The position numbers and the translations under genes are program-made. A stretch of 63,490 nucleotides of DNA, filler included, from Hausera hauseri (Eukaryota): assembly GCA_046269625.1 (NCBI GenBank). It is 11 parts of 11 records of this genome, joined end to end, with 100 filler letters (N's around TTAATTAATTAA, not from the genome) between each part and the next. Parts side by side here need not be neighbours in the genome. Positions count along the whole stretch, not along the records: positions 45,460 to 53,301 come from JBJURY010901425.1; 10 more parts are not named here. One strand, written 5' to 3'. Below the pieces are notes generated by a model, which was not told where the DNA came from, ran no database searches, and was given only the letters and a program-made list of their open reading frames with translations. Positions 14,264-63,409 of the stretch are shown here, in pieces; position 1 is the first letter of the stretch; each line of letters starts with the position of its first letter.

Positions 14264-14488
14264 ACCATAATTTACAAATTAATTTTACGAAATGTCACTT
14301 CTTCCAAAAGCGTATTAACTTTCTCGGACACATCATTTCAACAAATGGTCATTCTCCTCAACCAAAACGCTTTGAAGCTCTCAAAAGTATACAACTACCT
14401 CGAACAACAACAGAAATGAGGAGCTTTTTGGGAACTTTGCACTTCTTTCACAAGTATGTGCCGAACTGCTCTGAACTTACCGCACCAT
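14264..14488 (+). mobile_element. Gypsy RT C-terminal fragment, inverted relative to the adjacent element
   Basis: KCHFFQKRINFLGHIIS...MRSFLGTLHFFHKYVPNCSELTAP. Similar but not identical to the reverse complement of ~15507-15730. Confidence 0.85.
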
Positions 14489-17400
14489 TCAAGTGCGTAG
14501 GAAAAGGTCGGCTATTGTGTCCGTGTTAGTGCTCCGTAGGGGGACAGCTTCTGGCCAACATGAGGAACCATCCATCATGGTTAAAATTAACTGATCACCG
14601 TTGTCAAGAGGAAGAGGGCCAACGAAATCAACATGAACAGACTCGAAATGTGATGTGCAAGGGAAACGATATAGTGGTGGCTTTAAATGTTTGGTGGTTT
14701 TAAATTTCTGGCAGGCCACGCACTCCTTAACCCACGCTTGCACATCGGAACGCATAGTCGGCTATATTACTTGCCGGTGGAGTAAGAGAAAAATTTCCTT
14801 AGCACCAGGATGATGCAGTGAATGTACACTGTTAAACGCTTGCCGTTGTAAAGGTGGTGCAAGAATTATTACGGAATGACCTGGTTTGGAAATGTCTAAA
14901 TCCACGCCGTCAACAAATGTACAAGACTTAAAAGAATTAAGTATTTCCTGAGGTGGCTGATTCTGTTGGAGTTGTACTTGAGAGGAGATTGGTGAAAAAT
15001 TAATCGAACTAACCGTCCGAAATAGAAAATCGGAAACCAAATTATTAACCCCGTTAATATGTTTAATGTCAAAGTTAAACGTCGACAGATATGATATCTG
15101 TCGTTCTTGGTGCGAGGAAGGATGTTTCATAGTCATGATGTTTAGCAAGGGCTTGTGATCGGTCTGTATAATAAAACGGCGAGCGATAAGTAGGTGGGAG
15201 AAATGCTTTAAAGCAAGAACTATGGCCAATAATTCCAGATCGAACTTTGAATATCGAGTTTTAGGGAATGTTAGCTTACGAGAGAAAAATTCTAGTGGTC
15301 GATCTTCTCCTTTGTGTATTTGGTGAAGCACAGCATCTACCGCAGTGGTTGAAGCGTCTGTAGTAAGGATGAGTTCCGCATCAGGCTTGGGAAAAGCGAG
15401 AATGTCGACGGTCTTAATTCCTTCGCGTAGCTTATGAAACTTATCAACCAGTTAATGTGTCCACTGGATTGGCTGATGTTTTTGCCGCCACTTAAGTGAG
15501 CAAATGATGCGGTAAGTTTAGAGCAGTACGGCACATACTTGTGAACGAAATGCAAAGTTCCCAAAAAGCTTCTTATTTTTGTTGTATTTCGAGGTAGCTG
15601 CACGTTTTTAGGGGTTTAACCCGATCGGGCTGAGGCGAGTGACCTTCGGCAGAAATAATGTGACCAAGAAAATTTATACGCTTCTGGAAAAAGTGACATT
15701 TGGCGAAATTGATCTGCAGGTTATGCTGGTGTAAACGTCGAAAGATTAATCTGAGGTGTTCCTCGTGTTGTTGGTTCCAAAAGGAAACAACTAATATGGC
15801 ATCAACATATGGATGAGCATATGGAAAATCAGAGAGGATAGCATCAATATGGCGTTGAAAAGTCTGTGCGGCATTCCGTAGGCCGAAAGGTATGTAGATA
15901 TATTCATAAAGGCCAAAAGCAGTAGTTACTGCTGTTTTTTCGATATCTTCAGGTGATACCGGAATTTAGTGGTAGGTTTTGAATAAATTACTGGTAGAAT
16001 AAATTGTAGTGTTGTTAAGACGATGTAAGATATCCTTAATGAGTGGTAGCGGGTATGCATCCATTATTGTCAAAGTGTTCAACTGAAGATAGTCGCCACA
16101 TTGTCGAAAAGTTCCGTCCTTCTTTTGTACGACATGTAATGGTGACGACCATGAGGATTTGGAGCGACGTACAATGCCGGAATGTTGGAGTTAGAGAAAT
16201 TCGGCTTCAACTGCTTGTCTACGATGAGGAGATAATGGACGCACTTTTTGGCGGATAGGTCTTTGATGTTGCGTCAAAATGTGGTAAAAAGTGGTATTTG
16301 CTGGAGTAAAAGACCTGTCTTTTTTAATAATTCTAGAACAGGATACGTTAATGAATTGTGCAGACTTGCAGGTAATTGTGAAAAGCTTGGTGGGAGCAGG
16401 GTGGTTTTGTCGGTAACTGTTGCAATTTGGACATTATTTGGTGATCTAAAATGAAGTGGTATTCGATGAAGGGTGGTAGTATTGAAGATGGTATTGTAGC
16501 TGGTAGTTTTATCTAATGAATTGGCAGTGGTAACGGAATCACTCTCATTGCCGTGTAAACCACAATTGTCAGTAATATTGTTCTTTAGTAATTTATAAAA
16601 TAAGGTACCATGATTGTAAGAAAAAGGTTTGTTCGAAGGTTTTTTAATATAGGTTTTTGACTTGCATTCACCAGCACGACAGACGAAATGGTATCGACGT
16701 GATCGAATCGCTCCTTAGTGCAACAACTTGCTAAGCAACGTTGTTTGCAATCGACGAGAAGGTTATAGTGCAAAAGAAAATCGGATCCTAAAATGGACAT
16801 TTGCAACAGTAGACGTCCAGTGAAACATCGAAGTAAATTTTGGAAGGGTAAAAGAAAGCCTGCGTGTACCGGAAACATGTAGCGGTTATCCGGAAGCTGT
16901 AAAAAGAGGTTTATTGTTGAATGAAGTGTGTTGGGTTGGAAAGGTGAGTGGCAGTAAAGAAATCGCTGAACCTGAATCGATGAAAAAATCTATGTGGCGA
17001 GTTGTTGGTAACGTAGTTATTGCTTTTACGTAAATACGGCGAAAGAAAGTTTTCGGCTGGTAGAAACTGAACAATGGCCCTCGCCAGGACTCGCCGTAAG
17101 CACTGGCGGCGTAATTAGTTTTTTGGCAGTGGTGAACTTGGGCGGTTGTAAGAAGATGAACAATACGTCCGACGTTCGTATGCTGTATGTTGCTTCTAAA
17201 GGTACAACCAGAGATACACTTATGTGCCTCATTCTTAAATTTTGCGTGGTAGATGCAAATAGGGTTGTTAGCTTGCTACATGTGGGTGTAAAAACGGCAC
17301 CCGAGATGATGCTTTTGTGCTTTAGGATCAAACCTCTTATGGTAGAAACGGGTCGGCGATCGCGCAGGAGACGGTGACCGACCTCTGAATACAGAGCGTG

Positions 17401-19809: not shown

Positions 19810-20448
19810 TCATCTGACTGATTTTTGTGTGATGGAATTTAATATGCTGTTATGGGCGGCTTGGAGGTAAATTTTTAACAGAGGATTATTAAAAAATCGA
19901 CAAATTTTATACTTTAAAATATAGTAAGCTGAATATGTTCGATTCAAGAAGGAATTACGAATTTCATCTTCATCAATATTGTTTGATGCCTGCATCCATG
20001 GAGTGTTGATAATTAGTTCGATTCGAAATCGTTTTGTTGAATCGACTTGAAGCATTCCATCAACCAGATATTGGCAGGAGGGTGAAAGAAAAAACGAAAA
20101 CCTCATTAATCCACGAAGAACTTGATTTCCTGTCTCCCAAACTTTCACCAGGAAAGGGAGTGAACCGCAACCCAGTATATATAAAACCACACCCAAACTC
20201 CAAACGTCCGGCAATGAAACATCGTACAATTCTCCTTTGAACAATTCGGGAGCAGCATATGACTGACTACCACAATGTGTCGGCAAGAATGTTTCCGAAA
20301 AAATTGCAAAATCCAACATAGGCAAATTTAATTTGATAGTCAGAATTCAAAAGTAAATTCTCCGCCTTTAAATCTCGATGGACGACTTCGGGTTTGTGGC
20401 ATAAATGTATTGCACAAACAATTTGCCAAAATAGTTCCCGGGCATCCT
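19810..20448 (-). pseudogene. AMPK-related (SIK/MARK-like) Ser/Thr kinase, disabled and intronless over this span
   Basis: [43 protein letters not shown]...GSLPF. The DFG position reads AYVGF and is followed by a frameshift at ~20300. Confidence 0.85.
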
Positions 20449-20548: not shown

Positions 20549-23500
20549 TGGAGCAGTACTATGGTGCCACAACGGTTCACGGTAAACGGGCCTATGTATG
20601 TCCCGGTTGTTCTATAGTTGAGACGCAAGTCAATTATGAACAATTCTACAACAACCACAAGCATCAGCAAGCCTTGACAGATCGTACGTGGACATGAAGG
20701 TGGATACGTCGGCAAAAACAGCAACGCAATTGAAGGATGTACCCGCTAATGTACGTAACCGGTTGGAACCAGAGGTGGCCAAATTCCAACAACACCACCA
20801 CCACTGCGAAATGCAATATTATGCTTTTGCAGAATTTGAAAATCTGCAAGGTGACAGGAAACAATGGTTCCTGTCATATAGAGCCGTACCATACTCTGAG
20901 GATTTTATTGCCAATGTAGGCGAAAAGCTTGACGAAAAAATCGCCAACTACACGAAAAAGGGCAGTGGTTGGAGAATTGTAAAGATTGTCACTCTCGGCT
21001 TTATTGTGACCAAGACGAGTGACATGATTTACCTGTCCGGACGTTCATTCATACCGACACCTGCATCCTTGAAGCAATCTCTGGCGGTAGTGAATGTACA
21101 AAATACTAACGACGAATAATGCTTTATTTACAGCATTTTGGCCATATTTAAATATGATCAAGTGTCCAGACATCATGCAAATTTTCCAAAGCAGTACAGT
21201 AAGTATTTTTCAGAATTGGACTACGACGAGTGTTGGATGCCGATGAGAAACGAAACCATACCGGCTTTTGAACGGCGTAATCCGACAGAGGCCATCAACG
21301 TGTTCCGGTTCAACACAATCGTAGAAATACCGGTGGATGAGGAAATTTACAAGAATCCTCATGTGGACATAATTTATCGCAGTCGAAATCCAATTGTATG
21401 CCCAGTAAATTTGTTGATGGAGAATGAAGAAATGTTTCATTACACGGCCGTGATTAATTTGGACAGATTGTTGAACATGGAGCGTGACCAGTTCATCAAA
21501 AAGCGTATACGGTGCAAATGGTGTCCCGTGTGTCTACATGGATTCCGGTCAAATGAGACATGGGAAAAGCATGTGGCGCTGTTCAGGCAAACTTCATTAG
21601 GAACCACAATATGTTATGTCAGTCAAAAAGGAGTTGTGATTTAGTGATTGGTCAAAAACGGACAGTCCTGCATATATGGTGTGCCGATATAGACGTAATT
21701 GTACCACGGCACAATGTATACGACCAAAAGCAGGTACCAATTACCGTCAGTATGTTGCTAGTACCAACAAAGGCCGCCGGATAACCGCAGTATTACGTTT
21801 TCCATGGTTGGAACTGTGTACGTGATTTCCTGCAGCAGTTGGAAACCATAGTGGAAACGGAAATCGCGCCGTGGTATCGCAAAAATTGCAATAAGCCATT
21901 GATTTGGGCAGACGAATATCAACCGTTGCTTTTCGCTATTACCAATGAATGTTATCTGTGCCACAAAATATTGCCGCTTGATGCACAGGAACGGCTAGTA
22001 CTGGATCAGGACCATTTTATCGGTCGATATCTCGGAGCAGCATGCAATTCATGCAATTTGGCAAGGCGTGTGCGGCCATTCCTGACGGTGATTTTTCATA
22101 ACTTCCGGAGTTATGATTGTCACATTTTAAAATGGAGAAATACCTGTCACTGTCTGCTCGTATTAACCGGTTCAAGGTACGCTTCCTTGATTCATTGCAA
22201 TTTTTCAATGAATCATTGGCAAATCTGGTAAATGCCTTGCCAGATGTGCCGCCAACATTGACTCTGTTCCATGTGCATATTGCGCTTAGCAAAGGCATAT
22301 TCCGGTTTGACTTTACGATATCGTACGAGCGGTTCCAGACGACAGACGAATTACCACCGCGATGGGCGGGTATTACAGAAGAACATCACAAAGCACAATC
22401 TTTTTGGGCAGAAGTGGGCTGCAGAAACCTGTTGGAGTACATGCTTCAGTAGCTGAAATTGGACGTGTAACTGTTAACCGATGTGTTTCAGACATTTCGA
22501 GCTAAAGCGTTGGCAGAAGATAAGCTGGAGCTACTAAACTTTTACTCAACACCCGGAATGAATTGGGCATCAGCTCTGATGTCACTGGATCGGGATATCG
22601 AGCTATTGCAAGACCGTGAAATGTACCGAATGTTTGACGTTGGTATTTGTAATGGCATGACATTTATCAACAGGTACCGTGTAACCAGTGATGATACCAC
22701 ATCACTGTTGTATATCGACATTAATAACCTGTACGGCTGGGCGCTTTCACAACCCTTGCCGTACGGTTCATTCGAATGTGTAGTTGACAAACAGGACCTG
22801 GACACAATACTGGAAAATTTGCCGAGATCAGACACGACAGCAGAAAACAGCTCAATTGGATACCTGATGGAAGTCGATTTCGTGGTACGAGATGAGCTGC
22901 ATGACTTTCTGGATGAACTGCCGGTCGCACCAATCAGCAATATCCATCGGTCTCGAAGATGAAGGAACTGCTTATGACGCATGAACCCAAGCAAAATTAC
23001 ATAGTTCATTGGCGTCTGGTGCAATTTTAAATGTAGTTGGTTGTACGCGTCACACGGCTACATCGCGCAATCCGATTCTCAGAGGCTCCGATATTCAAGC
23101 CATACATCAGTCGAAATTCGAAAAAACGTGCTGCACCTTGTACGAAGTTTGAGAAAGACTATTACAAACTGAGAAACAATTCTCTGCGGAAAAACAGTAG
23201 AGAATCTGAAAAAGCGGCTCAATTTACGCCTATACAATAGCGAAAATTCGTTGGTCACGTACACTAGCAAGGCACAGTTCAGGCGATCAATGCGCATTGC
23301 CGATGGATTAGTTGCCGTGCTTTTAAACAGGGAAGAAGTCGTACTGTACCGGCCAAGTTATACGGGACAAGTGGTATTGGATCTGAGCAAGTTGCGGATG
23401 TATGAGCTGCAGTATCGCGATTTGGCACGTTACCGGAAAATGTTCGGCGGTAGCGGATACAGGATCAATATAAGTGCCGGTGACGCAGATAGTTTTTCTT

Positions 23501-40195: not shown

Positions 40196-41820
40196 CAGGT
40201 AGGCAAGTATTTCTCCCAAGTCGTTTGAGCCCATAACTTTTATTTTCTGATGACTAATCGCAAGTAATGGCTTAATTTAAAGCTGACACTATGGCCTAAC
40301 TAATAAAAAAGATTATCAAATTTCATTGGATAAAACCAAATTGGTCATTTTTCAAGAAAATTTACTGGAATTAAAAAAATGAACAACAAATAAACATTGA
40401 TAAAATGATCATGTCTGGTTTCAACACTGCGTCCGTCTCGCTCAATGCTAACTCGCATTCGGCGCACAAAATCCTGTACTGTTTTATCGATCATCTCCGG
40501 AGAGATTTGCTGGATTTGGTTGACGATTTCCTCACGAAGGTCGTTCAGATTGACAAAGGCTATCGGTATAAACTTTGCCCCTGCAAAAATAATCCATCCA
40601 AGTGAGATCAGGGCGATATGGGGGCATTGGATAGGACCCGGATGTGCCTCAGAGCCGATCCAGTGATCTGCGAAGGTTTGATCGAGATAGCGCACTTCCA
40701 GTGCTTTGTGAGAGGGTGTTCCATCTTGCATAAACATGATATTGTGGAAATTTGGAAGCTGTTGCATTGCCAGAGTGACGTTGTTCTCGAGCATTTGTTT
40801 GTACCAACGAGTGTTGATTCCTTTTTCTTTCGGGAATGCGGGGTCATAAAGCAAAAAGAACGGTCTGATAATTCCATGCGTACCAATTCTGAGCCAGACG
40901 GTCACTTTCGGGGAATGGAGAGGCTCCTCTGCGTACCAGTGTGCATTGGTGTCACTCCAACAGCGAAAGTTGTGCCGATTCACCCCGCTGTGGAGATGAA
41001 AACGAGCCTCGTCGGAGAACATCAGATTTCCGAGAAGATTGAGATTATCTTCGAGACGCTGAAGCATGTAACAAGCAAAATTAACACTGGTTTCGTAGTC
41101 GGTTGGGAGCGATTCTTGGAGCTTTTAAGGGTGAAATTTTGTTTCAAAATCCTTCCAACATTTCTGGGTAAAATTTCAACTCCACTGGCGACAAATTAAA
41201 TTGTGATTTTCCACAAATATTTTACGGGTATGCTCGATTTTTTCTTCACTTCGGACTTATCATATATTGTTCATTGCTGCAAGCTAGCATCATGAAAATT
41301 TTTGTTCCACTTCTGAATTGTCTTATAGTAAGGAACATGCGCATGCTTTGCATTCTCTTTGTGGACTCTAACAGCAAATGTGGTGTATTCACGCTTCGAG
41401 TTAACCCAACAGTAATAAAAACGAACTTTTTCATGGTTTGAATACGGCATCTTAACAAAAAAAATATAAAATTAGTCATCAACCAAATCCAGCAAATCTC
41501 ACCGGAGATGATCGATAAAGCAGTTCAGGATTTTGTGCACTGCCTATGAATGCGTATTGAGAGAAATGGACGCAGTGTTAAAACAAGATAAGATCATTTT
41601 AGAAATGCTTATTTGTTCATTTTTTAATTACAGTAAATTTTCTTGAAAAAATGACTAATTTTTTAAAAGGCTATAACTTTGGTTTCCCCATGAAATTTTA
41701 ATCTTTTATTAGTTAGGCCATAGTGTCAGCTTTAAAATAAGCCATTACTTGCGATACGTCATCAGAAAATAAAAATGTTATGGGCTCAAACGACTTGGAA
41801 GAAATACTTGCACTACCCTG
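40196..41820 (-). mobile_element. Tc1/mariner-superfamily (DD41D/rosa-like) transposon with ~330-bp TIRs; transposase frameshifted
   Basis: TA|CAGGTAGGCAAGTATTTC... and ...GAAATACTTGCACTACCCTG ends. TIRs at ~40196-40525 and ~41476-41820. Motifs FSDEARFHL, HSPKVTVW, MQDG, and frameshifted PDLTWMDYF. Confidence 0.9.
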
Positions 41821-44864: not shown

Positions 44865-45359
44865 ACCTTATACAATCGAACTGGGGAGTCTGTATAAGAA
44901 CGACATGGCTTAATATCAGTAATTTCGAATACTGAAGCAGCTTTCTGTCTAATGTCAGAAAGCTGTTGACTGTCACAAAGAGTATCAGCGGCAGAACTTG
45001 ATCGATGACAATATTTGTAGCTAGAACTTCCTGGACACTGACACAAGAAGTTGCTTGCTATAACCTTTGTCATTTCAATATTTTCTGATTCTATCATAAT
45101 TTAGTAAACATGTTTGTAGTTCGAATAACTGTACTAGTTAAATGGTCTCTAGTTTGACCAGGGATGCACGATTCTGTACAACGATATCGAATTCTGTTCC
45201 AAATTCCTTTGAATCGTGAAAAAATATTGGTCAAAGATATTTCTGTCCCCGCAATTTTTCTCAAATCTATATGGCTTCCGGCCAAGCTGGTTGTTAGTGG
45301 ACTAACATAAATGGGATACCCAATGGGTAAATCACAACTAGAGTTAACCAAGTTTCGTA
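44865..45359 (-). CDS. PCNX: Pecanex C-terminal region fragment (host gene or pseudogene); frame break near 45095
   Basis: RNLVNSSCDLPIGYPIYVSPLTTS matches the conserved pecanex C-terminal motif. Confidence 0.8.
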
Positions 45360-45459: not shown

Positions 45460-45603
45460 TTTACTGAACCTTGGCGAGATGATATTAATCCATCAGGTTA
45501 TACAGTACCCAGAGATGAAACAGAAAATCATTTTAAAGAAATGATGCATCGAAATAGACAAAATATACATAAAAATCAGCAAAATTCACAAACAATTTGT
45601 TAG
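45460..45603 (+). CDS. 3' end of an unknown ORF converging on viral unit A
   Basis: Open from the contig start: FTEPWRDDINPSGYTVPRDETENHFKEMMHRNRQ...TIC*. Confidence 0.35.
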   Translation, partial: FTEPWRDDINPSGYTVPRDETENHFKEMMHRNRQNIHKNQQNSQTIC

Positions 45604-46059
45604 TGTTAGAAATCATATACGCTAAAAATTTATTTTTATTTATATAAAAAATAAAATTTATTCTCGGGAAAAACAAGAGTCTCTGATAGCCCAGATCATA
45701 CTTTATAACAAATGCAGAAATTTCAGTTCGCACTCTGGGCACGGTGTGAGGGGTGAATATGGGAACGTACACGAATCCGTAAATTTAAAAATAAAAAGTC
45801 AAAAAATCTGTAACCATATTAGCACACAACAAAGAACAAAGAAACAAAGACAAATTTTAACACACAATATTATGATGATTTAGAAATACAACGAATATTA
45901 CAGAATTTGCGTGAAAATGTGTTATTTAAATAAATGTTTAGTTCAACTTTTTATCTTTTCCCTCTATTTATAACTTAATAAAAAATATAAAAACCAAATA
46001 AAAACGAAACAAAGAAATAATAAACAAAGACATTTTTATACATACTAAAATTTATTTTA

Positions 46060-46754
46060 CTACACATAGCTTTCCATAGGTTCTGTATCTGCATCGCTAA
46101 TCCCACAGCTATCGGCATCACTGCTGTCCTCTGCAAGTTTCAAGATAGGCTTGTAACCGTTAGGTGGGTCAGGCTCTGGCACCCGCTCCTCACCTAACGT
46201 ATACTCAACAGCGTTCAGGGCTACTCTCGGGAGTGGAGAGCCGGCTGGACGCTGAACTATTCTCGGATCGAGACACTTACCTAAAAATAATAAAATACAA
46301 AATAAAATAATTAAATACCCTGTTGCCGTTTACCTTTTAGAGCAAAACAAATCAAACAATCGTTTCCCCAATCATAGATCGGAAACGGATTGTGTGAACA
46401 CAAAATCTCTTGTCTGTGCAAATTGTCACAGATATCTTCAGCACTACGTCGAGGTGCGGAATACACATCACGCACAGGGTCACCATCGTCGTCGCTGGCA
46501 AATACTCGGAGAAGACTGCAGAGATGGATCGGATCCTTTATCGAATATACAGTTTGCATTTTCTCATACAGATGAAGAATTTGTTGCATCATGTGCAGGT
46601 TATGTATGCATAAACGGTTGACATGCTGGAGATCGGCTGTCTCCTCTGGTGGGATATTATAGCGGATTTCAACGTTACGAACAAGGTCGCACAAGCTGTC
46701 GATACTATACTGCAATTTAAGCAACTTCGAAAGGAATTCACCGTGTTCACCCAT
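46060..46754 (-). CDS. Viral accessory gene ORF2, copy A: two exons (46754-46319, 46280-46060), 38-nt GT-AG intron; Cys/His-rich
   Basis: Spliced product ...LCSHNPFPIYDWGNDCLICFALKGKRQQG|KCLDPRIVQRPAGSP...TEPMESYV* is colinear with copy B. Confidence 0.75.
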
Positions 46755-46847
46755 TAATAATAAAATAAGACTAGAACAACGAAATATTTATTCACTGTAC
46801 AATCTATTTTTAGCAACACAAATGAGCACCAATCAGATAAAAATTAA

Positions 46848-48370
46848 TCACAAAGTAATGTGGTCATCACGACCCCACGTGTCCTCAATATCGTCAAACG
46901 TAACATTAGCTGGTGCACTGTTGTACTCAGTAGGAACATTTCCAGTATTCAAATAATTAATTTGACTATCTCTACTAATCAACCCCGCCCGCCAAGCATC
47001 TCTTTCTGCAAACGGTATATGGCAGATTTCGCTACACATATGATATGGGCTTAAAATTTCACGATGATAAAGTGGTCTGTAATTTCTAATGTTATCATAA
47101 TTGATAGGAGTATTAAGATCATCATCGTCGTAACTAGGAGAATGAAACAATTCGTCCTGGGAATTTATAGATAAAGATTGATGAGGCGGGATAACTACAG
47201 GAATACCAGTTGGCAAACTACTAATAGGTAATGTGTCACTACTTTCCATAGGAATAACTTGAGGAGTGCTCTGCATCAATGGAGTACCAACGACTTCTAC
47301 TTGTGGTCGCACATATTCACTTGCAAGTTTTCTAAAATCAATTCTATTATCAATCAAAAACCTATCCCTACTTTCATCCGTTTGATACAACATGAAATCG
47401 CCGAACTCATAAAGTAAACAGCGTTTCATGCAGGCCTCTTTCTGACTTAAATCCATCCTTCGAGGCCAGAAGGAGGATTGCGAGTTGTATGTAAAGATTA
47501 CGGGGATACTCGAGGGAACGACAACACTTTTATAGAGTCCCCTAATACTTCGATTGTCATGTATATTATTGCACTGTACAATGCTTAAAAATATGTCAGG
47601 GCAAACTTCCGAAAAACCCACATCATCGAAAATTATTATGTCGTAGTTTGGAGACCACTCTGATGGGGTATCATGCAGGCTATGTAAAATCAACGGGTTC
47701 TTCCCGTGACTTAGGGCGAAACAAGTTTTCCCTATATTGCTCGAACCGAATAATAGGGCTGTATTAACTCCGTTCTCCAAGCGAAACTTAATGGGTGGAA
47801 TAGTAAATATGTATTGCGGATTTGTTTCTATCTTAGGCTTGAACTTATTTGCACAGTATGTCTGCAGTAATTTGTGCCGTGTAACAAACTCCGCACGGTC
47901 TCCCTCTTTCATTATGTTCATTGCTTCCGAGACCGTGGGAGCATCATCAAATAGCCTATACAAGGCTTTCCTACTGTTATTATCTTTGTGCAAATCTATG
48001 GGTGGAGTCCCTAGCTGCATCACGAATGCGTTGTTATTCTTCTCGTGATACTTGTAGACCGCAAAAACGTTACTGCGGAACGGGATGACGTAGAGAAAAT
48101 CAAACAATGTTTTGAACCTGTGTAACCTCATGGGGTTACGCATATAAAACAGATAATGAAGGTGGTGGAAGCCACTTGGTGATGTGTCTTCGACCACCTT
48201 GAGATAAAATTTTACAGACAACGAAATACGAATAAAATTAATCAATCATTACAAGATCATCACCATCGTTAATTTTTGTCACGGCCATAAAATGCCGAAA
48301 TGTCGCGCCTTCTGGTGGCTATACCAACTCCGAAATCTTATCGGGAAATCTCTGTTGTAAAGCATCAGTG
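46848..48370 (-). pseudogene. rep: CRESS-DNA-virus-type Rep (HUH endonuclease + SF3 helicase), copy A, 5'-truncated
   Basis: RCR motif II EDTSPSGFHHLHYL, motif III YKYHEK, Walker A GSSNIGKT, Walker B IIFDD, motif C FTYN. Stop and frameshift at 48240-48325; similarity to copy B ends at 48370. Confidence 0.9.
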
Positions 48371-49623
48371 ACAATGTAACGATTACAATACCAATTAACA
48401 TGACATTCAGTATTCAATTCCAAAATGATTTATACAAATGGAATGAATTAAAAACTCCATATTTCCAACCATACATATGGACAAGAGAAATAAATGATTT
48501 AATGACATATTATGAGTTTTGGAGGCCTAAACATATGAAAGTGAAATTTATGAATGCACAACCAACATATCAAACAGGCACAGTGGACTTTAAAGGAATA
48601 AATCCAGAATGCAGATTACAATTTTTCGTGGACTATAAAAATGTATTTTACAATTACGAAAACAGACCTAATACAGAAATAACAGGTCAAACAGCATTAC
48701 TTGCTTATTGGAATGAAGGATTATTAAAAAATGATAATTATTTATTAGGTTGGAGTACAAGTACAACAAATATTACAACACCAGCGTGGTGCCCAACACG
48801 TACATTACCAATATTAACAGATAATAGAGGAAATCAACCAACAGTTAGGAAATATTATGAACATTTACCATTTCAAAGTGGTGTAACAGAAATTATTGCT
48901 AATGAACCAGACTTATTTACATACGAATACACACCAACTCATGATTATTGGAAACAAACACATTTAAGTGCAATGTTATGGAATTACGTTAAAACTAATA
49001 ATGGAAAAGTCGATAATTCACAATTTGGAACATTAACAGATGATAAAATTCCTTGGATTGCAGACAGATTCGACTACTTACATACAGAAATAATCCAACC
49101 GAATTGGAATACATGTAGTAATTGGTTCAACATAGCTAAGGATGAAATTGTTAGTAAATGCCATTATGATATTAGATTAGATGATAAAACGTACAAAAAT
49201 TGGAAATTAAATTATCATTATGAAACTAGTAGTTTAGGAAAAACTTACGAATATTGGTGGAGGGATACTGATTATATACAAGAAGAAAAACCTATGCCGG
49301 GATTATACTTTAAAATTAGTCCACTTGCAGGAATAGATAACAATGCATGTGCACAAACATGTCAAATGAATGTAACAATAGATTATACATTTGAATTTAC
49401 AAGAAATCAAATAAATGAAATGAGAAGACAAGCTTATATAATGAGTGCGAAAGACACGCAAATACCACTTAAAAGGAAATACTATAAAGCTTGGTTTCCT
49501 GTGTGCCAACCAGTTACAACATTTATCTCTAAAAAGAATAATGAAGGTCACATTACAAGTATAAAAGAAGTATGGGATAAAAAGGACATGCTCAGTAACA
49601 TGTTCAGTTATTACAACGTGTAA
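48371..49623 (+). CDS. Parvovirus-type capsid protein (VP), 5'-truncated, otherwise open (407-aa ORF from 48400)
   Basis: TPYFQPYIWTREINDLMTYYEFWRPKHMKVKFMN...RLQFFVD and KPMPGLYFKISP...QMNVTIDYTFE parallel the parvoviral VP jelly-roll segments (..FRPK.....N..Q.F.D; PPP.I.IK; V.I.WE). Confidence 0.75.
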
Positions 49624-49625
49624 AA

Positions 49626-50243
49626 ATGAATTACAAACTTTTTGAAGACGAAGCGAGAAAAAATGTACATTTCATTATCTCCACTTGTGTTTATGACTTA
49701 CCTGACGATTGTCCAATTGATATGTTACACAATAAATCCAATCTTCCAAAACTTATCAAAAGCATTATTTCAAGCAACGGTGGCAAAGTTAATACAATAC
49801 AATTACTTGGTCCCAGAAATTGCGGCAAATCATTCTTCATCAATTTACTAACAGCTAATAAAAATGTTGGTGCCATTCATAACATGTTTTCGCGCAGTAA
49901 TTTTTGGTGTCAAGATTTAATTGGGAAAGATATTTATGTTGGAGAAGAAATAATGCTTGATCAATTTAATGCTTAATATTTTCTAATGTTAATGGAAGGC
50001 AGTCAATTGACTCGTGCAGAAAATAAATTTCAACATAGTTCGAAGTTACCGAAGAAACCTATGATTATTGCAAGTAACGAGTGTCCGTTTCGTCATGTTA
50101 GTAGTATGTATGATGCGTTCATTGTCCGAAGATTATTGATTACTTTTATAAAACCAATTCAATTCAGTATGCCTATCAATTATGATGATATAGAAGTGCA
50201 GAGGATTTTACAGAGTTTGCGGGATAATGTTTTATTTAAATAA
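49626..50243 (+). pseudogene. Stand-alone parvovirus NS1-type SF3 helicase/ATPase (~205 codons, one premature stop at 49974-49976)
   Basis: KVNTIQLLGPRNCGKS (Walker A), NFWCQD, YVGEE (Walker B), LMEG...ENK, PMIIASN (motif C), AFIVRR. Own ATG 2 nt after the VP stop; no HUH domain; its stop overlaps AATAAA. Confidence 0.85.
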
Positions 50244-50553
50244 ATTTTTTTACTACTTTGCTATGTTTTGGTTTTTTTTTTTTCGTTTTTGGGTGTCCGG
50301 AGCAGTGAAACTATGGGGCAGTGTAGTTAGTGGGGTTATTCTTTTAAAGAATCATTCTAATTCAAACCTAGCTAGTGTGAACGAGCTTACGCAGTGGTCT
50401 GGGCACGGAGTGAGGGTGTAGATGGGCACGTACTCGAATCCGCAACTTTGGTTACAAAAATTCATAAAAAATCTGTTACCATGGAAACGTAAACAAAGAC
50501 ATACGAAACAAAGAACAAAAAACACAAAGACAATTTTAAGTTTGAAATTTTTA

Positions 50554-51214
50554 TTAGACAAAGGAAACCATAGGCTCAGTGTCATCAGTCTCGTTTTCAG
50601 CTTCTTCATCAATTACATCAGAAACCACATACGATCGCGTGGAACACACAGGCCCAGCAACCACCTCATAGCGGTCAACATCAAGGGCTATCCGGGGGCG
50701 TGGAGAGCCGACTGGACGCTGTACTATTTGGGGGTCCAACCACTTTCCTAAAAATAATAAAATAAAAATCGAAAAATAAAATACCTTGTTCCCTCTTACC
50801 TCTCAAGGCAAAACAAATTAAACAGTCATTCCCCCAATCGTAAATAGGAAAGGGGTTATGACTACATAAAATTTCTTGGCGATAGAGACTGTCGCAGATA
50901 TCTTCCGCCACTCGAGGATTACACGAATACACGTCACAAACACCACCATCAGATTCGTCAGCAACACGTAATAGAGAACATAAATGCAAAGGATCCTCAA
51001 TTTGAAATTTTCCTTGCATTTTTTCATATAAAACGAGAATATCGTGCATGAGATTCAAATTATGCAAACACAAACGCGATATGTGTTGCATATCTGTGAT
51101 CTCTTCAGGAGGAAGGTTATACCGTATCTCGACATTCCTCACATGATCACACAAACTGTCAATCGAATATTGTAATTTCAACAATTTGGATAAAAATTCA
51201 GAATTTATAGACAT
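50554..51214 (-). CDS. Viral accessory gene ORF2, copy B: two exons (51214-50785, 50747-50554), 37-nt GT-AG intron
   Basis: ...DCLICFALRGKREQG|KWLDPQIVQRPVGSP...TEPMVSFV*. Intron position is the same as in copy A. Confidence 0.75.
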
Positions 51215-51310
51215 AATGAAATACTAAGTCAAAACAACAAAACTCAGAACTATTTATTACAACTGTACACACATAAAAATAAACACACATAATGAGCATC
51301 CAATAGCAAT

Positions 51311-52933
51311 TTACATAGTATGATGATCATCTTGTCCCCAATCAAAATCTATGTCCGTATAACGCACATATGCAGGTGCAGTATCAACTTCAATTGGAGT
51401 TGCGTCTGTATTGAGATAGTCCACTGGTGCAGGATCAATATAGCACCTTTCCGAGCACACATGAAAAGGTGACAGTACTTGGTTGTGAAAAGTTGGACGA
51501 TAATTTACTACATTAGCTAAAACAGGTGGGCTAACATCATCGAACGACGGTAAATGGAAAAGCTCGTCATCTCGGTAATCCCCACCAACATTAACACTTA
51601 ACGACTGATTATTTGGGATAACTACAGGAATACCACTAGGTAAACTATCTACAACAGGAATAGGAACAGAAATTACAGGGGGCACAACATACTGATCTGC
51701 AAGTCTACGAAAATCTACCTTATTCTCCGTTAAAAATCTATCACGACTCTCGCCCGTCCTGTACAGCATGAAATCTCCGAACTCATGTAAGAGGCAACGT
51801 TTCAGACACGCCTCCTTCTGGGATAAGTCCATCCTTCGAGGCCAAAAGGATGACTGCGAGTTGTACGTAAATATAACTGGGACAGACGACGGGACAACTA
51901 CGGATTTGTACAGGCCTCTTATTGATCGGTTTTCATGAACATGATTGCATTGGACTATTGCAAGAAATATATCGGGACAAACGTCGCTAAACCCTACGTC
52001 GTCGAATATAATTAAATCATATGAGGACGACCACTCTGCAGGTGTGTCGTGTAAACTGTGTAATATTAAAGGGTTCTTGCCGTAGGAGAGAGCATAGCAG
52101 GTTTTGCCTATGTTGCTGCTCCCGAACAACAAGGCAGTATTAACACCCTGATCTAACCTAAAATTAATAGGTGGTATTGTGAAAATATAATTAGTATTAA
52201 CAATTATATTTGGCTTAAATTTTTATGCGCAATAGCTTTGTAATAACTTATGCCGAGTCACGAACTCCGCTCGGTCTCCTTCTTTCATAATATTCATGGC
52301 CTCCGAGACCGAGGGAGCGTCGTCAAATAATCTGTATAGGGCTTTTCTACTATTGTTATCCCTATTAATGTCTATGGGGGGATTACCGAGCTGCATACAA
52401 AACGTTGAAGAATTTACATTTTTATCATGATATTTATATACTGCATAAATATCGCTACGAAAAGGTATAACGTACAAAAAATTGAACAAAGTCTTAAAAC
52501 AATGCAACCGCATCGGATTTCGCATGTAAAATAAAAAGTGAAGGTGGTGGAAACCAGATGGAGAAGTATCCTCCACCACCTTCAGATAAAACTTATAAAG
52601 CAACGACAAGCGAATATAATTACTCATAAGCATGGAAATGTCAATATTATCGTCATATTTCAGGACGGCCATATAATGCCGGAATGTTGCACCTTCTGGT
52701 GGCTGTATTAATTCTTCAATCTTATCCGGAAATCTGGTCTGCAAAGCATGCGTGTAATCATCATTTGAAGGAAACAGGCGAGTATAAACACCATTTCTGG
52801 CATTATGCACTGTGAAATTTTCTCGATACCCCTTTGGAAAAAAAATATTAATATTATTAATAATAAAATAAAAAAATACTTGTTGGTTGCGTTCTTCACG
52901 GCTCATTATCTGACTCTGGGACGATGACGACAT
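51311..52933 (-). pseudogene. rep: CRESS-type Rep, copy B, full length; 1-nt frameshift at ~52225; putative 48-nt intron 52832-52879
   Basis: HHLHFL, YKYHDK, GSSNIGKT, IIFDD, FTYN. Restoring one base joins ORFs 52223-52933 and 51311-52132 colinearly with copy A. Confidence 0.9.
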
Positions 52934-53084
52934 GTAGCAGAAATATGAGACAGTGTATAAATTATTACGAATTTATACAATATCTCATATATTGCATAAC
53001 ACATCATAATACACTGATAAATTATGACGAATGAATAATTGTCCTTTGTATTTAAATATATTTGAAAATCATTCTACTCCTTTT

Positions 53085-53151
53085 TGAGAATGAGCAACCA
53101 ATAATATTAGCTACTATATATAGCTTAATTATTATTGGTTGCTCATTCTCA
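53085..53151. promoter_or_regulatory. Perfect 22-bp inverted repeat (hairpin) upstream of Rep, with a CCAAT in each arm and a central TATATA
   Basis: TGAGAATGAGCAACCAATAATA (53085-53106) pairs with 53130-53151. Inner AGCTA/TAGCT stem. A second hairpin lies at ~53205-53243. Confidence 0.8.
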
Positions 53152-53401
53152 TTTACACATATTCTTTTCTTATGTTTCTAAAAAAAGTATATAGTAGTGC
53201 AGATATTATTTACTATCTACTTACAATAGTAAGTAGTAAATAATTAATAAAAAATTATTATTTACATCGGGTGCATTTTTGATACGGTGAAACAAAGCTA
53301 TNNNNNNNNNNNNNNNNNNNNNNNNNNNNNNNNNNNNNNNNNNNNTTAATTAATTAANNNNNNNNNNNNNNNNNNNNNNNNNNNNNNNNNNNNNNNNNNN
53401 N

Positions 53402-59387: not shown

Positions 59388-60530
59388 ATGGCAAACAATA
59401 ATATAGAACAGGTGATTCAGCCGAAGGCTGACCTCACCCTACCGATGAAGAAATTTTCGGGAAAAGAAGACAATATGAAGTATATTCCAGAAGTTTTGGA
59501 TGGGGCGATAAACAAAGAGTAGAGGGATTACCTCTCCACCTAAAAGGAACGGCTCTCATGAATATATTTTCAAATGCCGGATGACGACAAGAAGGACTGA
59601 AAAGGAATTAAAGAAAAACTGCCCCAGAAGTTTTTAATAGATCCCTCGGGAAAGGGGAGAATTGAAGAGTTTATAAGAAGGAGGCAACGGAAAGACGAAA
59701 CAGTCCAAGACTTTGTCTATGCATTGGAAAAGCTAGCGGCTAGAGCACATCCCGACGTTATAATAAAAAACAATGCATTGTTAGCTCAATTCCAGTATGG
59801 AATGGAAGAAAGGTTGAGGACAATAATCTCTCAAGCAGACCCAGCTACATTTCAAGAAGCAATAAGGAAGGCACGAAAAGCCGAACGAGATGCGGAACTA
59901 TGTAGGTGGAATAAGTCCAAAAGTAGAAATAATAACTACGATAAAAGAAGAAACAATGGTACACAATAGTATCAACCATACGAAAAGAATAGAAGCCCTT
60001 CACAAACGTCAGCTACAGAAGCTGAGTCAGATGTAGAAAAGAAAGTAAGATTCAATTTGAGGAACGATGGAGAAAAGACAATTTATAAAAAGAAATCCAA
60101 AAAGGATGGAAGAGCGTTACCCAACAAAGACTCCGAAGGAATATTGAACTGTTTTAACTGTAATAAATACGGACATATAGCGAAATCATGTAGATCACGT
60201 AGAGGAGATCTCTCGAAATCAAGTAATAAGAATAAACAACAAAAGAAAGATTACACATCAGCCACGTCAGATGAATCGTCCGATAAAGAATATGAAACGG
60301 AGGATAGTGTTAGGGAACATGAAGTTAAGAGAAAGAATAAGAAAAAAGAAAGTGTTAATTATATAAACTATACACTATGTCAAAGCATGAAGAAACAATT
60401 AGAAATGGAGTTGAAAGATTACAAGACACATCAGCAAAGACTAAAAGAAAGTAGTATTTATATGATAGGGGATCAACCGGAGAAAAAGGTATCCCATCAA
60501 AGAAGAAGAAAGGTAATAAAAAATAATTGA
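59388..60530 (+). pseudogene. gag: Ty3/Gypsy gag, degraded
   Basis: KKFSGKED, LPLHLKGTA, RRQRKDETVQDFVYALEKLA, PATFQEAI, CFNCNKYGHIAKSC. Confidence 0.9.
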
Positions 60531-60639
60531 CATAGATGTTGGATGAAGAGAAACATCAACAGAGAGGGAAGCGGTAGGAAAGGAAAAGAAAAGAGGAAGA
60601 AAGAAAAGTAACCTGAGTATACCCTCGTTTGGTCAGGAT

Positions 60640-61785
60640 GAAGCTCAAACGAAACCAATATTTGATGAAACTATATTAGAACAAGTAATAAAGAACTCAG
60701 GTGTAGATCTAGACGAAGAAGACGATATTATCCAAGCAGTAATGACTATTGACCCCAATAATATATGTGATGTAGATAAAACGACTACTACGATACTGAA
60801 GGTAATTACCAATAAAGTGCCAGTAGAAAGGATAAACGAAATATTACCTCAGTTGGTTTTATTGGCCCAAGATATTAGCACGGTGAGAGAGATAACAAGG
60901 ACCGTATTGGCCAAGGCCGCTGAAGATGAGAAAGGAAGAAATGAAACTATGAGAGAAACAGTAAGAGAAGGGAACTAAGACATGAGATTTATACGAATGA
61001 ACGAAATAGACGACATACAAGCTTTACGAGAAAAGATAGAAGAGTTGGAACCATTCTATCAAGGAAGTACTTATGGATTAAATTATAACGGAAGAACGCT
61101 ATATAGGTATGATAGGTTATTGAGAATTGGATGTAGAAAAGAGAACTATAACTCAATATTTATAACCGAGATACATCCAGAAGCGAGAGCGCAGGCAACG
61201 ATGGATAATATCCTAAGCAAAATGGAACCATAGGAAGTAGAAGGATCGCCCGTAGGCGATATTCAAGATGTTACGGTCCAAACAGAAGCTAAAAGAACAG
61301 GTAGACCAAAAGGAACAAAGATTAGTGATATTTGCGACAAGAAAGACAAAAACGAATAAATAGTAAAACGTTTATTATTGGAAGGAACAAACGTTACACC
61401 TGAATCTGTGGCCTTAGATCCCTTATTATAAACCGTACTGGCCAAATTACATACATCATTCGCCTCCTTTCACATGCAAGTAATAATTCCAGATGGGCTA
61501 TTCCAAACCTTACGTAATAATATATTACGGATTATTAGGCAATTTTATGAGAATCTAGACGAAGAACGGATAAACGAATTACATGAATTAGATATTTTGG
61601 AAAAGATGTTCGCAACGGGTATTACACGAGAGAAAGCGCAAACTGCCATATCCTACCTTCTATATAAAATAATAGTAATCAACCATGAAACTTAAAATTT
61701 AGAACAGATCGAACGAAATATAAAGACAGCTGTCAAAATTTTAAAAGATACGTTTGGAAATTGGATCCATTGTAGAGGTGGTTGG
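60640..61785 (+). pseudogene. Unknown helical coding region between gag and the env-like ORF
   Basis: ORFs starting at 60742, 60982, 61474, 61786 and 62365 are all in one frame and separated only by stops. Confidence 0.55.
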
Positions 61786-61890
61786 TTGACCAGTCTAATA
61801 ACCAACATAACAAGAACAGGAGAACGAAAAAGATTAATAGACACGCCGATTTTGACTCAATCAAACACTTCTAGACCAGGTATAACCGGT

Positions 61891-62664
61891 ATGTCAATAA
61901 TGGAGATCCTACAAATCCTCTTAATAACGTCATTAATAATGCCAAAAGCCGTAGGTACAGTCGCATACCACTGCTCCAAGCCTAGCGAAGGACAGAAGTA
62001 CTCTTTAGTTGATTTTGAGAAATGTCCAAAAGCCGACCCAAAACAGTTAACAACAACAAGTGGCCTCGCATATTGGGTTTATCAGGAATCTGAATTTATA
62101 AAGGTGAAAGTTAGGGAATGTTACGTCAAGAGATCATTTTTCCTGTTTCATTGTGCCTATTATTCTGGAAATTTGGCCATCATCGAGCCCACAACACCTT
62201 TTGAACCAATAATAATATCCCGAGCGGAATGTCAGGATGTCTTTAAGATTGGTACAGTAACTATTCACGATGCACCCATACTTGCCGTTAGAAATAGAAT
62301 AAAGTACACCAGAATCTTCAGAGCAGGAAGAATAGATAAAACAATGGAAGGCACATGTAAATGAGTGGATTACGACGTTGGAGGTACCATCGCATCTAGA
62401 ACGGTAGCAATTGAGGATTTCCAGGTTCAATTGAAAGAATACGAAGTACTATTTGACTCACAAACGAAATTAATGACAACATTGTTGAAGGAAGGAAAGT
62501 TCAACAAGACAGTAAGTAAAACGGCTGAGAAGGACACAGCTACGTATAAAGAAGGAACAAAGGAAGTTAAGATGACGGAAGTAGCTACTATTGTGTATTC
62601 AGAAAACCTAGAGGAAATGATGCGATTTAAAATCACTGGAGTGGTAAGTAAATGTACAGTATGA
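61891..62664 (+). pseudogene. env: Env-like glycoprotein (class III, gB/chuvirus-type), N-terminal part with internal deletions
   Basis: Signal-like MEILQILLITSLIMPKAVG, then AYHC...YSLVDFEKC...VYQ...VRECYV...FHCAY...ISRAEC...G.CK. Confidence 0.7.
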
Positions 62665-62905
62665 CTGATGATAACAATATCAAATATGATCAGGTAAAAG
62701 TAAAATCAAAGCACAATCAAATAACTAGCATTAAGCAACTGGCACTGAAGTCACGAAAAGAAAAGTACAGGCAAAAGTTGGTGACGAACTTACATCATCT
62801 AGATCCCGTAGATGAATATCATGGACAAATATATAACGAACGACCATTGGTGAATCCCTCAGTCCTCGATACGTAGTACATACGGGACTGTACCCTATAC
62901 ATCAA

Positions 62906-63409
62906 GTGCAACAGATGAAACAAAGTTTTGACGAAAATCTGACACCTTATAAATGTGAACCTACATATAAAACGGATGATAAAATCGAACGGCAATCACC
63001 CATAAGACCAGAGATAGAGATAGAGGTGAATGGATATCCATTGATGGTTCCGTTAGATACTGGATCCACGACAACAATAATGGGAAGGAGCCAAATGACA
63101 AAAAATTTAAAAAGGAAGCTAAGAAGACCGACAACTACGTTAATAAATGTAGGAGCATTCGGTACAGAAGAGGAAATTAAAATGGTCATAAATGCCGAGA
63201 TTAAGATTGGTAAACAAATTTTAAAGCACATAATAAGAATAGCAGACAACCTGACTAATGAAATCCTAATTGGGTGCGATATATTAAGTCAATTGGAAAA
63301 CACTTACATAGATGTGAGAACAGGTCAACTTAAGACTTTCATTGAAGATCAAAATGGAGGGATGGTTTCATTAACAAAAGATATCATATCCCACCACGAT
63401 CCAAGATAG
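62906..63409 (+). pseudogene. Retropepsin (aspartic protease), start of pol
   Basis: IEVNGYPLMVPLDTGS...ILIGCDIL. Confidence 0.92.

Follow-up and report, generated by a model that had tools for sequence, protein, structure and literature searches.

It is clear that related viral sequences lie head to tail at this locus, and the question it raises is whether one insertion was duplicated in place or separate viruses came to be joined, and, if the latter, what kind of virus they were. The first-pass annotation framed the tandem copies as a property of the window, the whole 63,490-nucleotide stretch of DNA analysed here. The copies are there, but the window is made up of 11 unrelated contigs separated by artificial spacers, and a single 7,842-bp contig (45460-53301), on which no host flank is seen, carries the entire finding; the other 10 contigs yielded no additional copy of the element. 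The contigs adjacent to it hold decayed retroelements and host genes. On the contig are a divergent CRESS-type Rep, a jelly-roll capsid candidate and a second, stand-alone SF3 helicase of parvovirus type (Table 1). The gene order of the parent virus was ambisense, with the capsid followed by the stand-alone helicase on one strand and Rep followed by ORF2/3 on the other, the two gene sets converging and a nonamer stem-loop lying upstream of Rep; all fragments share one orientation. The reading that we consider likely is that two, probably three, related small ssDNA viruses of PEVE/PIVE lineage contributed pieces, all in one orientation, to a mosaic that has barely decayed since it was joined and is most likely endogenous in the genome of an invertebrate, plausibly a flatworm.

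Table 1. Features of the contig, in coordinates of the window
Feature	Position	Strand	Remarks
Whole contig with the finding	45460..53301		Bounded by artificial N-TTAATTAATTAA-N spacers
3' end of a plus-strand frame	45460..45603	+	47 codons and stop; left edge of contig
Fragment C, probable third fragment	45660..45865	-	Homology to B 50398-50539 and own GU-rich tract; non-colinear
C-terminal remnant of copy A's own helicase	45869..45933	+	AATAAA overlaps stop
Copy A 'ORF3', probable exon 2 of ORF2/3 gene	46060..46280	-	AATAAA at 46056
Intron candidate in A	46281..46318	-	GT-AG, 38 nt, phase 1, 92% AT; ORF2 and ORF3 in frame once removed
Copy A ORF2, exon 1	46319..46754	-	Cys/His-rich C-terminal part
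Rep A	46848..48370	-	CRESS-type HUH nuclease, SF3 helicase, variable tail; 5' end lost at 48370; AATAAA at 46792
A/B junction	48370..48371		Rep homology ends, capsid frame begins
Capsid candidate	48370..49623	+	Single jelly-roll type, 417 codons without stop; Atlas feature search
Second SF3 helicase	49626..50243	+	205 codons, no HUH domain; in-frame stop 49974-49976; AATAAA overlaps own stop
Copy B spacer, segment common to C, with GU-rich tract	50352..50553	-	Mostly missing from A
Copy B 'ORF3', probable exon 2	50554..50747	-	AATAAA overlaps stop
Intron candidate in B	50748..50784	-	GT-AG, 37 nt; position and phase as in A; 33/38 columns identical
Copy B ORF2, exon 1	50785..51214	-	109/146 aa identical to A; omega 0.023
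Rep B, full length	51311..52933	-	In-frame stop 52223-52225; AATAAA at 51258
Intron candidate near Rep B 5' end	52832..52879	-	GT-AG, 48 nt, in frame; 92% AT
Origin-like stem-loop	52943..52990	+	AATTATTAC (52960-52968) at apex; 9 nt upstream of Rep B start
Second hairpin	53085..53151		22-bp perfect arms
Third hairpin, imperfect	53204..53249		Intergenic region

Divergence of copies A and B under protein constraint

The colinearity first proposed for 45650-48370 (copy A) and 50350-52933 (copy B) stands, but its limits do not: the corresponding stretches are ~45869-48370 in A and 50179-52754 in B, and the colinear part of A begins in a helicase, absent from the earlier list of genes, of which ~20 C-terminal codons remain. 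The segment 45734-45860 matches B at 50398-50539 (105 of 144 columns identical; none of 200 shuffles equally good), out of order with respect to B and therefore outside the colinear block, and 45460-45865 is probably a fragment of a third virus, likewise out of order. The frame at the left edge of this region gave no match in Pfam or PHROGs and no second match within the window. The segment that B and C have in common may be a small gene or a regulatory element; its reading frame is ambiguous, and for this reason it is claimed as no gene.

Differences between the two Rep genes fall mostly on third codon positions (24%, 17% and 59% by codon position; 428 aligned codons), with pS 0.81 and pN 0.19, and ORF2 gives pS 0.91 and pN 0.20 over 146 codons, while peptides such as FTYNSQSSFWPRRMDLSQKEAC and RSIRGLYKSVVVPSS are the same in Rep A and Rep B. 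GY94 was used because NG86 left dS undefined, synonymous sites being saturated. By this method, in which the dS values (6-9 and higher) are unreliable as numbers and only the bound on omega is reliable, omega is 0.031 for Rep and 0.023 for ORF2, and omega = 1 is rejected at p 2e-86 and 2e-38, respectively. The dN/dS comparison suggested as a check on the first-pass annotation thus falls far below 1. The C-terminal tail of Rep is, as described there, more diverged than the core (69 of 131 amino acids identical, compared with 251 of 297) and is still constrained (omega 0.044).

Lesions are indeed few and differ between copies: in Rep A, a stop at 48319-48321 and a break of the frame near 48245-48250 add to the 5' loss, and Rep B has its single stop. 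Decay of the post-insertion type is present in the assembled sequence as three stops, one frame break and two junction truncations, and amounts to ~1% overall (3 stops in 2,093 codons, 95% CI 0.2-3%), some of the stops possibly being assembly errors. A neutral tandem duplication after integration, in keeping with the tandem layout on one strand, predicts 8.7 and 9.1 stops per Rep copy at the same 33% DNA divergence, whereas 0 and 1 are seen in the aligned main frames; together with omega of 0.02-0.03 and rejection of omega = 1 at p<1e-37, this refutes it, and the probability left to it is negligible. The proposal of two related viruses is upheld by the same values. Because strong protein constraint and saturated synonymous sites are found with only ~1% later decay, A and B were separate viruses before joining: by the time they were brought together, they had long been evolving apart as functional viruses.

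Two SF3 helicases, an origin-like stem-loop and a probable spliced gene

The presence of an HUH endonuclease together with an SF3 helicase in Rep places it with the CRESS DNA viruses (Cressdnaviricota). In a search of 1.84 billion representatives it matched 366 proteins at E<=0.001; 19 of the 26 top matches scanned carry Viral_Rep or Gemini_AL1_M, and motifs II and III and Walker A, B and C align with those of these matches. In a FastTree phylogeny of 57 of the top 60 matches (three shorter than 250 aa were left out), A and B group as sisters, and their long branch has no resolved neighbour. The searches brought up no close relative: none of the best 150 of the 366 matches exceeds 38% identity to Rep, and word-seeded searches, which covered only proteins of near-equal length, were empty for Rep A (0 of 2,434 candidates), the capsid (0 of 1,040) and the helicase (0 of 83). 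A PDB sequence search with Rep A returned nothing informative, none of 13 proteins from the contig's own frames matched Pfam at the curated threshold, and PHROGs gave nothing meaningful for six of its proteins. A prokaryotic origin was rejected because searches of plasmids, phages and GTDB genomes gave no match; a sigma-70 promoter scan, a model irrelevant to a eukaryotic virus, stayed at chance level.

CRESS genomes carry the NANTATTAC nonanucleotide at the apex of a stem-loop origin (PMC6186406), and AATTATTAC at 52960-52968 occupies just such a position. Twenty matches to NANTATTAC occur in the window, and a long stem underlies only that at 52960 (score 19, compared with at most 7 for the other 19). 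By analogy with CRESS biology, Rep would nick this nonamer and drive rolling-circle replication. The hairpin at 53085 drew two weak miRNA matches from Rfam, far below the gathering score, which were taken as chance.

Downstream of Rep, the ORF2 and ORF3 frames first described as separate are probably not two genes. Judged from the GT-AG candidates of 37 and 38 nt, they would be two exons of one spliced gene, and the length of these candidates fits the peak of flatworm microintrons at 37 bp (PMC6530080). An alternative leader-exon splice from Rep to ORF2 suits the frame of B and was dropped because that of A does not fit. ORF2 had no match in the Atlas, and its PDB sequence search was uninformative.

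The capsid candidate, which has probably lost its N-terminus (the part that carries PLA2 in parvoviral VP1) at the junction, owes its identity to one Atlas feature search, in which parvovirus-like and smacovirus-like clusters score almost alike (0.97 for a cluster with Denso_VP4 25% and VP1_2 14%, 0.96, and 0.95 for one with Smaco_capsid 68%) and recognition is below the strong threshold; the top cluster is mostly Cossaviricota. No sequence homologue of this frame was found in Pfam, PHROGs, PDB sequences or the word-seeded search.

The second helicase begins 2 nt past the capsid stop, an adjacency observed once, in B only. Its sequence matches Pfam PPV_E1_C (E 2.6e-4) and parvoviral NS1/Rep40 (B19 NS1, E 9e-5) and none of 150 CRESS Reps, and the fusion of HUH to SF3 that characterizes parvoviral NS1 is not found, the helicase being a 205-codon stand-alone frame. 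By fold alone, B19 NS1, PCV2 Rep and AAV Rep68 are near-tied (Z 10.8, 10.0 and 10.0). Among the Foldseek matches listed, the first is Q91S73, the 227-aa helicase of PEVE, the Planaria asexual element protein, at 36% identity (E 9.5e-12), the other 49 having 14-27%. It ranked first even though the helicase model had been built from an alignment of CRESS Reps. Since copy A also retains its own helicase end (16 of 20 amino acids identical to that of B, omega 0.006; tblastn E 6e-6), the two-helicase layout occurs in both viruses. In each, AATAAA is found at the homologous places. Could a CRESS virus and unrelated parvovirus fragments simply have landed side by side in a cluster of endogenous elements, no virus ever having had both helicases? 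The modules differ in GC3 (0.34-0.44 and 0.22-0.28) and flatworm genomes often hold fragments like parvovirus NS1 (PMC5013282), but two copies that diverged independently both have the helicase end pointing toward the Rep module, the nearest match of the helicase is likewise paired with a CRESS-like Rep in PEVE, and 2 nt separate its start from the capsid stop; such chance neighbourhood is very unlikely.

Relatives, and the joining of the fragments

In PMC3198968, PEVE is described with large and small segments and as not found integrated, and PIVE as its integrated relative with both protein types, present in numerous copies and treated as transposon-like; terminal inverted repeats (TIRs) are drawn for both. 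As in that description, a CRESS-like Rep and a separate short E1/NS1-like helicase occur here in one element, the second helicase is closest to that of PEVE among the Foldseek matches listed, and the PEVE type 2 Rep is among the ten best matches of Rep A. The contig differs in having both helicase genes on one continuous stretch without long inverted repeats, which counts against the link; none was found on it, nor between the two modules, and the ends of the element may be missing. Beyond what the same description covers for PEVE, the contig has a capsid-like gene, a nonamer stem-loop and microintron candidates. With CRESS viruses (unclassified Reps with the GKT.FALAHFKNPL helicase pattern) it shares the HUH and SF3 Rep, NANTATTAC at a stem-loop apex, the ambisense layout, a jelly-roll capsid (a candidate here) and a unit of ~5 kb or somewhat more; it differs in the extra parvovirus-type helicase and in the long branch of A and B. 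The genome of CRESS viruses is a covalently closed circle of ssDNA, and the sequence here is a rearranged contig from an assembly. The Parvoviridae have the helicase domain in common with it (AAV Rep40/52, B19 NS1), here Rep40-like and without nuclease; their short form is a shorter product of the rep gene, whereas here it is a gene of its own behind the capsid, no NS1 carries a fused HUH, and the nuclease belongs to the CRESS-type Rep. Parvoviral ssDNA is linear with hairpins at its termini; the hairpins of the contig lie at 52943-53249. Bidnaviruses, for their part, combine a stand-alone SF3 helicase with a parvovirus-like capsid (PMC4061559), and their helicases are among the Foldseek matches, but they encode a protein-primed PolB, which was not found among the contig's assigned long frames, where a CRESS Rep and nonamer are present instead.

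The layout of Rep A and VP each without its 5' end, as the first-pass annotation drew it, meets at a junction that is real in the assembly. Homology between A and B breaks off sharply at 48370, at the start of the capsid frame, and the origin region expected between Rep A and the capsid is absent there. The junctions bring together unrelated sequence without visible overlap. One alternative is that the copies are subfamilies of a mainly chromosomal, PIVE-like mobile element, selected during transposition and left as a truncated head-to-tail array by Rep-driven rolling-circle transposition. The transposon-like abundance of PIVE, the single orientation and the slight decay would suit this; the stop-free capsid frame, which points to a virion stage, junctions that cut inside genes and not at the nonamer, and the lack of a further copy on the other contigs make it unlikely. 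No likelier is co-sequenced extrachromosomal viral DNA, as in PEVE, or a collapsed or chimeric assembly of virus variants, with the junctions and some stops as artefacts. Such an origin would agree with a contig that is wholly viral, 7.8 kb and unplaced, with very few lesions and with the report that PEVE was not found integrated; against it, three nonsense codons imply ~1% substitution, high for a polished consensus, overlap assemblers would seldom make junctions without overlap, and essential genes are broken in both copies. The endogenous mosaic is preferred, against which stand the lack of host DNA on either flank and the modest placing of the PEVE type 2 Rep in comparison with Rep A (tenth among at least 500 matches, with 21% identity and nine other CRESS Reps above it). 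Co-infecting genomes may have recombined or been joined non-homologously, before integration or during it, or the fragments of this mosaic may have been inserted serially; deletions at ~45865 and 48370 would have accompanied the joining.

Tandem related viral copies with dN/dS far below 1 are ordinary and expected of endogenous viral elements. The interest lies in the anatomy, all of it beyond the first description: a second helicase, a stem-loop resembling an origin, intron candidates, what is probably a third fragment, and the PEVE/PIVE link. PEVE, described in 2002, obscure and still unclassified, is now tied to a candidate capsid gene, to a putative origin of rolling-circle replication and to a gene map with probable splicing, and the two-helicase layout is now seen in two more viruses with saturated synonymous sites; within partial coverage of the literature, no description was found of a virus with Rep, capsid and stand-alone helicase, or of a PEVE capsid. 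AAV Rep40/52 is required for efficient packaging (PMC12713660), and with chances that we regard as evenly balanced the second helicase may be a Rep40-like, separate DNA-packaging motor, which, lacking a nuclease and tied to the capsid gene, would pump ssDNA into preformed capsids, as the parallels with AAV Rep40 and bidnaviruses suggest. Why so small a genome would retain two SF3 helicases then has an explanation that can be tested: one would serve replication and the other packaging. More tentatively, and somewhat short of an even chance, the contig may represent an unrecognised chimeric family of ssDNA viruses that includes the orphan PEVE/PIVE and unites CRESS-like replication, parvovirus-like packaging by a dedicated Rep40-like motor gene beside a parvovirus-type capsid, and host-style microintrons. 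If so, the helicase for replication and the motor for packaging would be encoded separately and differ in ancestry, in parallel with bidnaviruses and with a CRESS Rep replacing PolB, a view that bears on the exchange of modules among CRESS viruses, parvoviruses and bidnaviruses.

Contig setting and arrangement of the viral copies

Between the 11 contigs of the window, 4-10 kb each, stand ten artificial spacers of 100 nt, the first at 4054-4153, each reading N44-TTAATTAATTAA-N44. The contigs are unrelated, and those adjoining in the window are not genuine neighbours. Among 43 frames scanned, the contigs other than the viral one carry decayed Gypsy-type retroelement domains and host-like gene fragments, a protein kinase domain (19813-20346, -) and a Pecanex C-terminus (45097-45357, -), which gives the source the look of an animal assembly's unplaced portion. 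The repeat-rich contig at 8961-13230 holds a tandem array (10315-11527, period ~105-110 nt), with repeats of shorter unit length at 9656-10076 and 12200-13230; a 224-nt inverted repeat (14266-14489 and 15503-15725, 79%) lies inside a Gypsy RT/RNase H region; and at 40198-41817 inverted repeats of ~330 nt, 82% identical, flank a 259-codon frame without a Pfam match, the whole looking like a decayed DNA transposon. A Recombination endonuclease VII domain (21785-22228, +, E 1e-5) is of a type frequent in Polinton-like elements. Retroelement-like frames at 59970-63406 (+) encode, in order, a zinc knuckle, a fusion glycoprotein and an aspartyl protease; the envelope-like gene is unusually placed between gag and protease, unless it was inserted there as a nested element.

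No host-like DNA was seen anywhere on the viral contig (45460-53301), tblastn found no further copies of its genes in the window, and domain and profile searches returned no family match for the frame end at its edge. An assembly chimera or extrachromosomal DNA is a less likely reading of the contig. The first-pass annotation described two diverged tandem copies, A and B, as colinear blocks. Colinearity stands only for A 45869-48370 with B 50179-52754, and the boundaries need correction, as 45734-45860 is out of order. This segment matches B 50398-50539 and has its own GU-rich tract, and so probably represents a third fragment, C. The segment common to C and B (45734-45860, 50398-50539) is 73% identical and absent from A's spacer; its frame is ambiguous, and it may be a small gene or a regulatory element. 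The junction at 48370 is sharp, and the origin region that should lie between the Rep and capsid genes is deleted there. Serial insertion fits the union of A and B, and so does a joining of genomes from co-infecting viruses.

Features of the viral contig and of the retroelement-like region
Feature	Position	Strand	Remarks
Viral contig	45460-53301		7,842 bp; whole finding on this single contig
Frame end	45460-45603	+	47 codons; contig edge; differs from capsid and helicase ends
Intron candidate ORF2/ORF3, A	46281-46318	-	38 nt, GTATTT...AG
Rep A	46848-48370	-	
Capsid frame	48370-49623		417 codons, without stops
Second SF3 helicase	49626-50243	+	205 codons, without nuclease domain; stop at 49974-49976
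Intron candidate ORF2/ORF3, B	50748-50784	-	37 nt, GTATTT...AG
Rep B	51311-52933	-	
Third intron candidate	near Rep B start		48 nt, in frame
Stem-loop	52943-52990		AATTATTAC at apex; 9 nt upstream of Rep B start
Further hairpins past stem-loop	53085-53151; 53204-53249		
Zinc knuckle	59970-60527	+	
Fusion glycoprotein, Monjiviricetes type	61696-62361	+	E 2e-14, above cut-off
Aspartyl protease	62837-63406	+	

Replication, capsid and helicase genes

One ambisense unit, 4,931 nt or longer (48371-53301), has the order origin region, capsid and helicase, followed by ORF2/3 (a probable spliced gene) and Rep, which converge with them. Rep was not recognized by Pfam and a word-seeded homologue search was empty. 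Its relatives in an exhaustive search number 366 at E<=0.001, 55 at 1e-10 and 0 at 1e-30, the best 150 of the 366 being 24-38% identical to it. Viral_Rep or Gemini_AL1_M was present in 19 of the 26 top matches scanned, and Rep aligns with them at its HxH motif, catalytic tyrosine, Walker A, Walker B, motif C and arginine finger. The Rep model (pLDDT 64) matches CRESS Reps in BFVD and HUH-SF3 replicases in the PDB; the type 2 Rep of PEVE, a planarian virus-like element, ranks 10 among the BFVD matches listed (21%, E 1.5e-13). In the tree, A pairs with B as its sister, and their long branch has no resolved neighbour. Of 20 matches to NANTATTAC in the window, only that in the stem-loop beside Rep B has a long stem beneath it (score 19 vs <=7), and an equally good fold occurs in only 0.6% of 54-nt windows along the contig; a nonamer at the apex of a stem-loop is the usual CRESS origin criterion (PMC6186406).

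For the capsid frame no sequence homologue was found in Pfam, PDB, word-seeded or PHROG searches or in prokaryotic and phage sets. Its Atlas features point to capsid clusters at 0.97 (Denso_VP4 25% and VP1_2 14% of members), 0.96 and 0.95 (Smaco_capsid), recognition being below the strong threshold. It is likely a jelly-roll capsid, for which the parvovirus type is only favoured. Judged by parvovirus capsid motifs, the first core strand would be where the frame begins, in keeping with loss of the N-terminus.

The second SF3 helicase, absent from the first-pass annotation, starts 2 nt past the capsid stop. It matched PPV_E1_C (E 2.6e-4), B19 NS1 (E 9e-5) and, weakly, AAV Rep40, with no match among 150 CRESS Reps. 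Its model (pLDDT 71) was built from a CRESS-Rep alignment, from which bias away from parvoviral matches is expected; its best BFVD match is Q91S73 (227 aa, 36%, E 9.5e-12), a Planaria asexual element protein according to PMC5618006, and the remaining 49 among the matches listed are 14-27% identical and mostly parvoviral. By fold comparison alone parvoviral and circoviral helicases tie. What survives of copy A's own helicase is its last 20 codons, with 16 amino acids identical to B's (omega 0.006), and this end faces the Rep module exactly as in B, so that the two-helicase layout is native to both viruses. A chance neighbourhood of helicase and Rep was rejected, as the same layout is kept in A and B.

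Rep would nick the nonamer and start rolling-circle replication, and the nuclease-less second helicase would package ssDNA into preformed capsids. By analogy, this packaging role has about an even chance of being correct. In AAV, encapsidation falls 20-fold when Rep40/52 are lost, and the fivefold pore is the docking site of the Rep helicase (PMC12713660).

Constraint, decay and gene structure

The claim that A and B diverged under protein-level constraint is confirmed, and is ordinary for viral relics. Both peptides quoted for it are the same in Rep A and Rep B, which share 320 of 428 amino acids, and differences over these 428 codons amount to 24%, 17% and 59% by codon position, third positions differing most as described. 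Synonymous sites are saturated (pS 0.81, pN 0.19 for Rep; pS 0.91, pN 0.20 for the 146 codons of ORF2), and a GY94 model was therefore fitted, giving omega 0.031 for Rep (core 0.016, tail 0.044) and 0.023 for ORF2, well below 1; omega=1 is rejected (p 2e-86 and 2e-38), as is omega=0.1 for both. Constraint on ORF3 is weaker, with 26/61 aa identical and loose bounds on omega (p 1e-4 vs omega=1). Neutral duplication at 33% DNA divergence predicts ~8.7 and 9.1 stops in the aligned Rep frames, where 0 and 1 are seen, and the alternative is dismissed as it was at first. Three stops in 2,093 codons of nine frames correspond to ~1% later substitution (95% CI 0.2-3%). It follows from the low omega and few stops that A and B were functioning elements while they diverged, and that decay set in only much later. 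A hairpin covers the motif II coding region in both Reps (48145-48210, 52528-52595; -12 and -14 kcal/mol), among the contig's strongest windows despite saturated synonymous sites; complementary codons may give rise to it incidentally.

ORF2/3 belongs to no known family in Pfam, PHROG, Atlas or PDB sequence searches. Its intron candidates are 89-92% AT, equal in position and phase in A and B, and their removal keeps the frame despite lengths of 38 vs 37 nt; of the four GTATTT-type donors on both strands, three are intron candidates. AATAAA occurs 58 and 55 nt past the Rep stop and 6 and 1 nt past the ORF3 stop in the two copies; in each of them another AATAAA overlaps the stop of the helicase. 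Rep stop and ORF2 start are ~95 nt apart (46755-46847, 51215-51310) with a poly(A) signal between, a spacing resembling that of trans-spliced operons. The candidates' lengths fit a flatworm host, without proving one: microintron peaks near 32-37 nt occur in flatworm genomes (PMC6530080 and PMC4040987). Parasitic flatworms lack piwi according to PMC4040987, so any piRNA role depends on the host.

Probable affiliation with flatworm virus-like elements

In replication the element would resemble CRESS viruses, and it falls outside both Parvoviridae and Bidnaviridae by their membership tests. Bidnaviridae, too, keep a stand-alone SF3 helicase and a parvovirus-like capsid (PMC4061559). Like this contig, PEVE and its integrated relative PIVE combine a Rep-like protein with a separate parvovirus/E1-like helicase (PMC3198968); a capsid-like ORF may already figure in the gene map of PEVE. 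PEVE is filed under 'unclassified viruses' and is cited as a small ssDNA virus in flatworm virus papers, where NS1-like fragments are also described as common in flatworm genomes. The literature search found no description of a virus with Rep, capsid and stand-alone helicase. The element is best filed as PEVE/PIVE-like, with less certainty for the link through Rep and for an inverted-repeat architecture, no long inverted repeat having been seen on the contig. The contig is best explained, with reasonable confidence, as an endogenous mosaic of PEVE/PIVE-like viruses; that these represent a family of chimeric viruses, in which replication and packaging are each served by a helicase of their own, is a more tentative proposal, at slightly under even odds. 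The architecture and the link to PEVE are a more interesting result than the selection claim.
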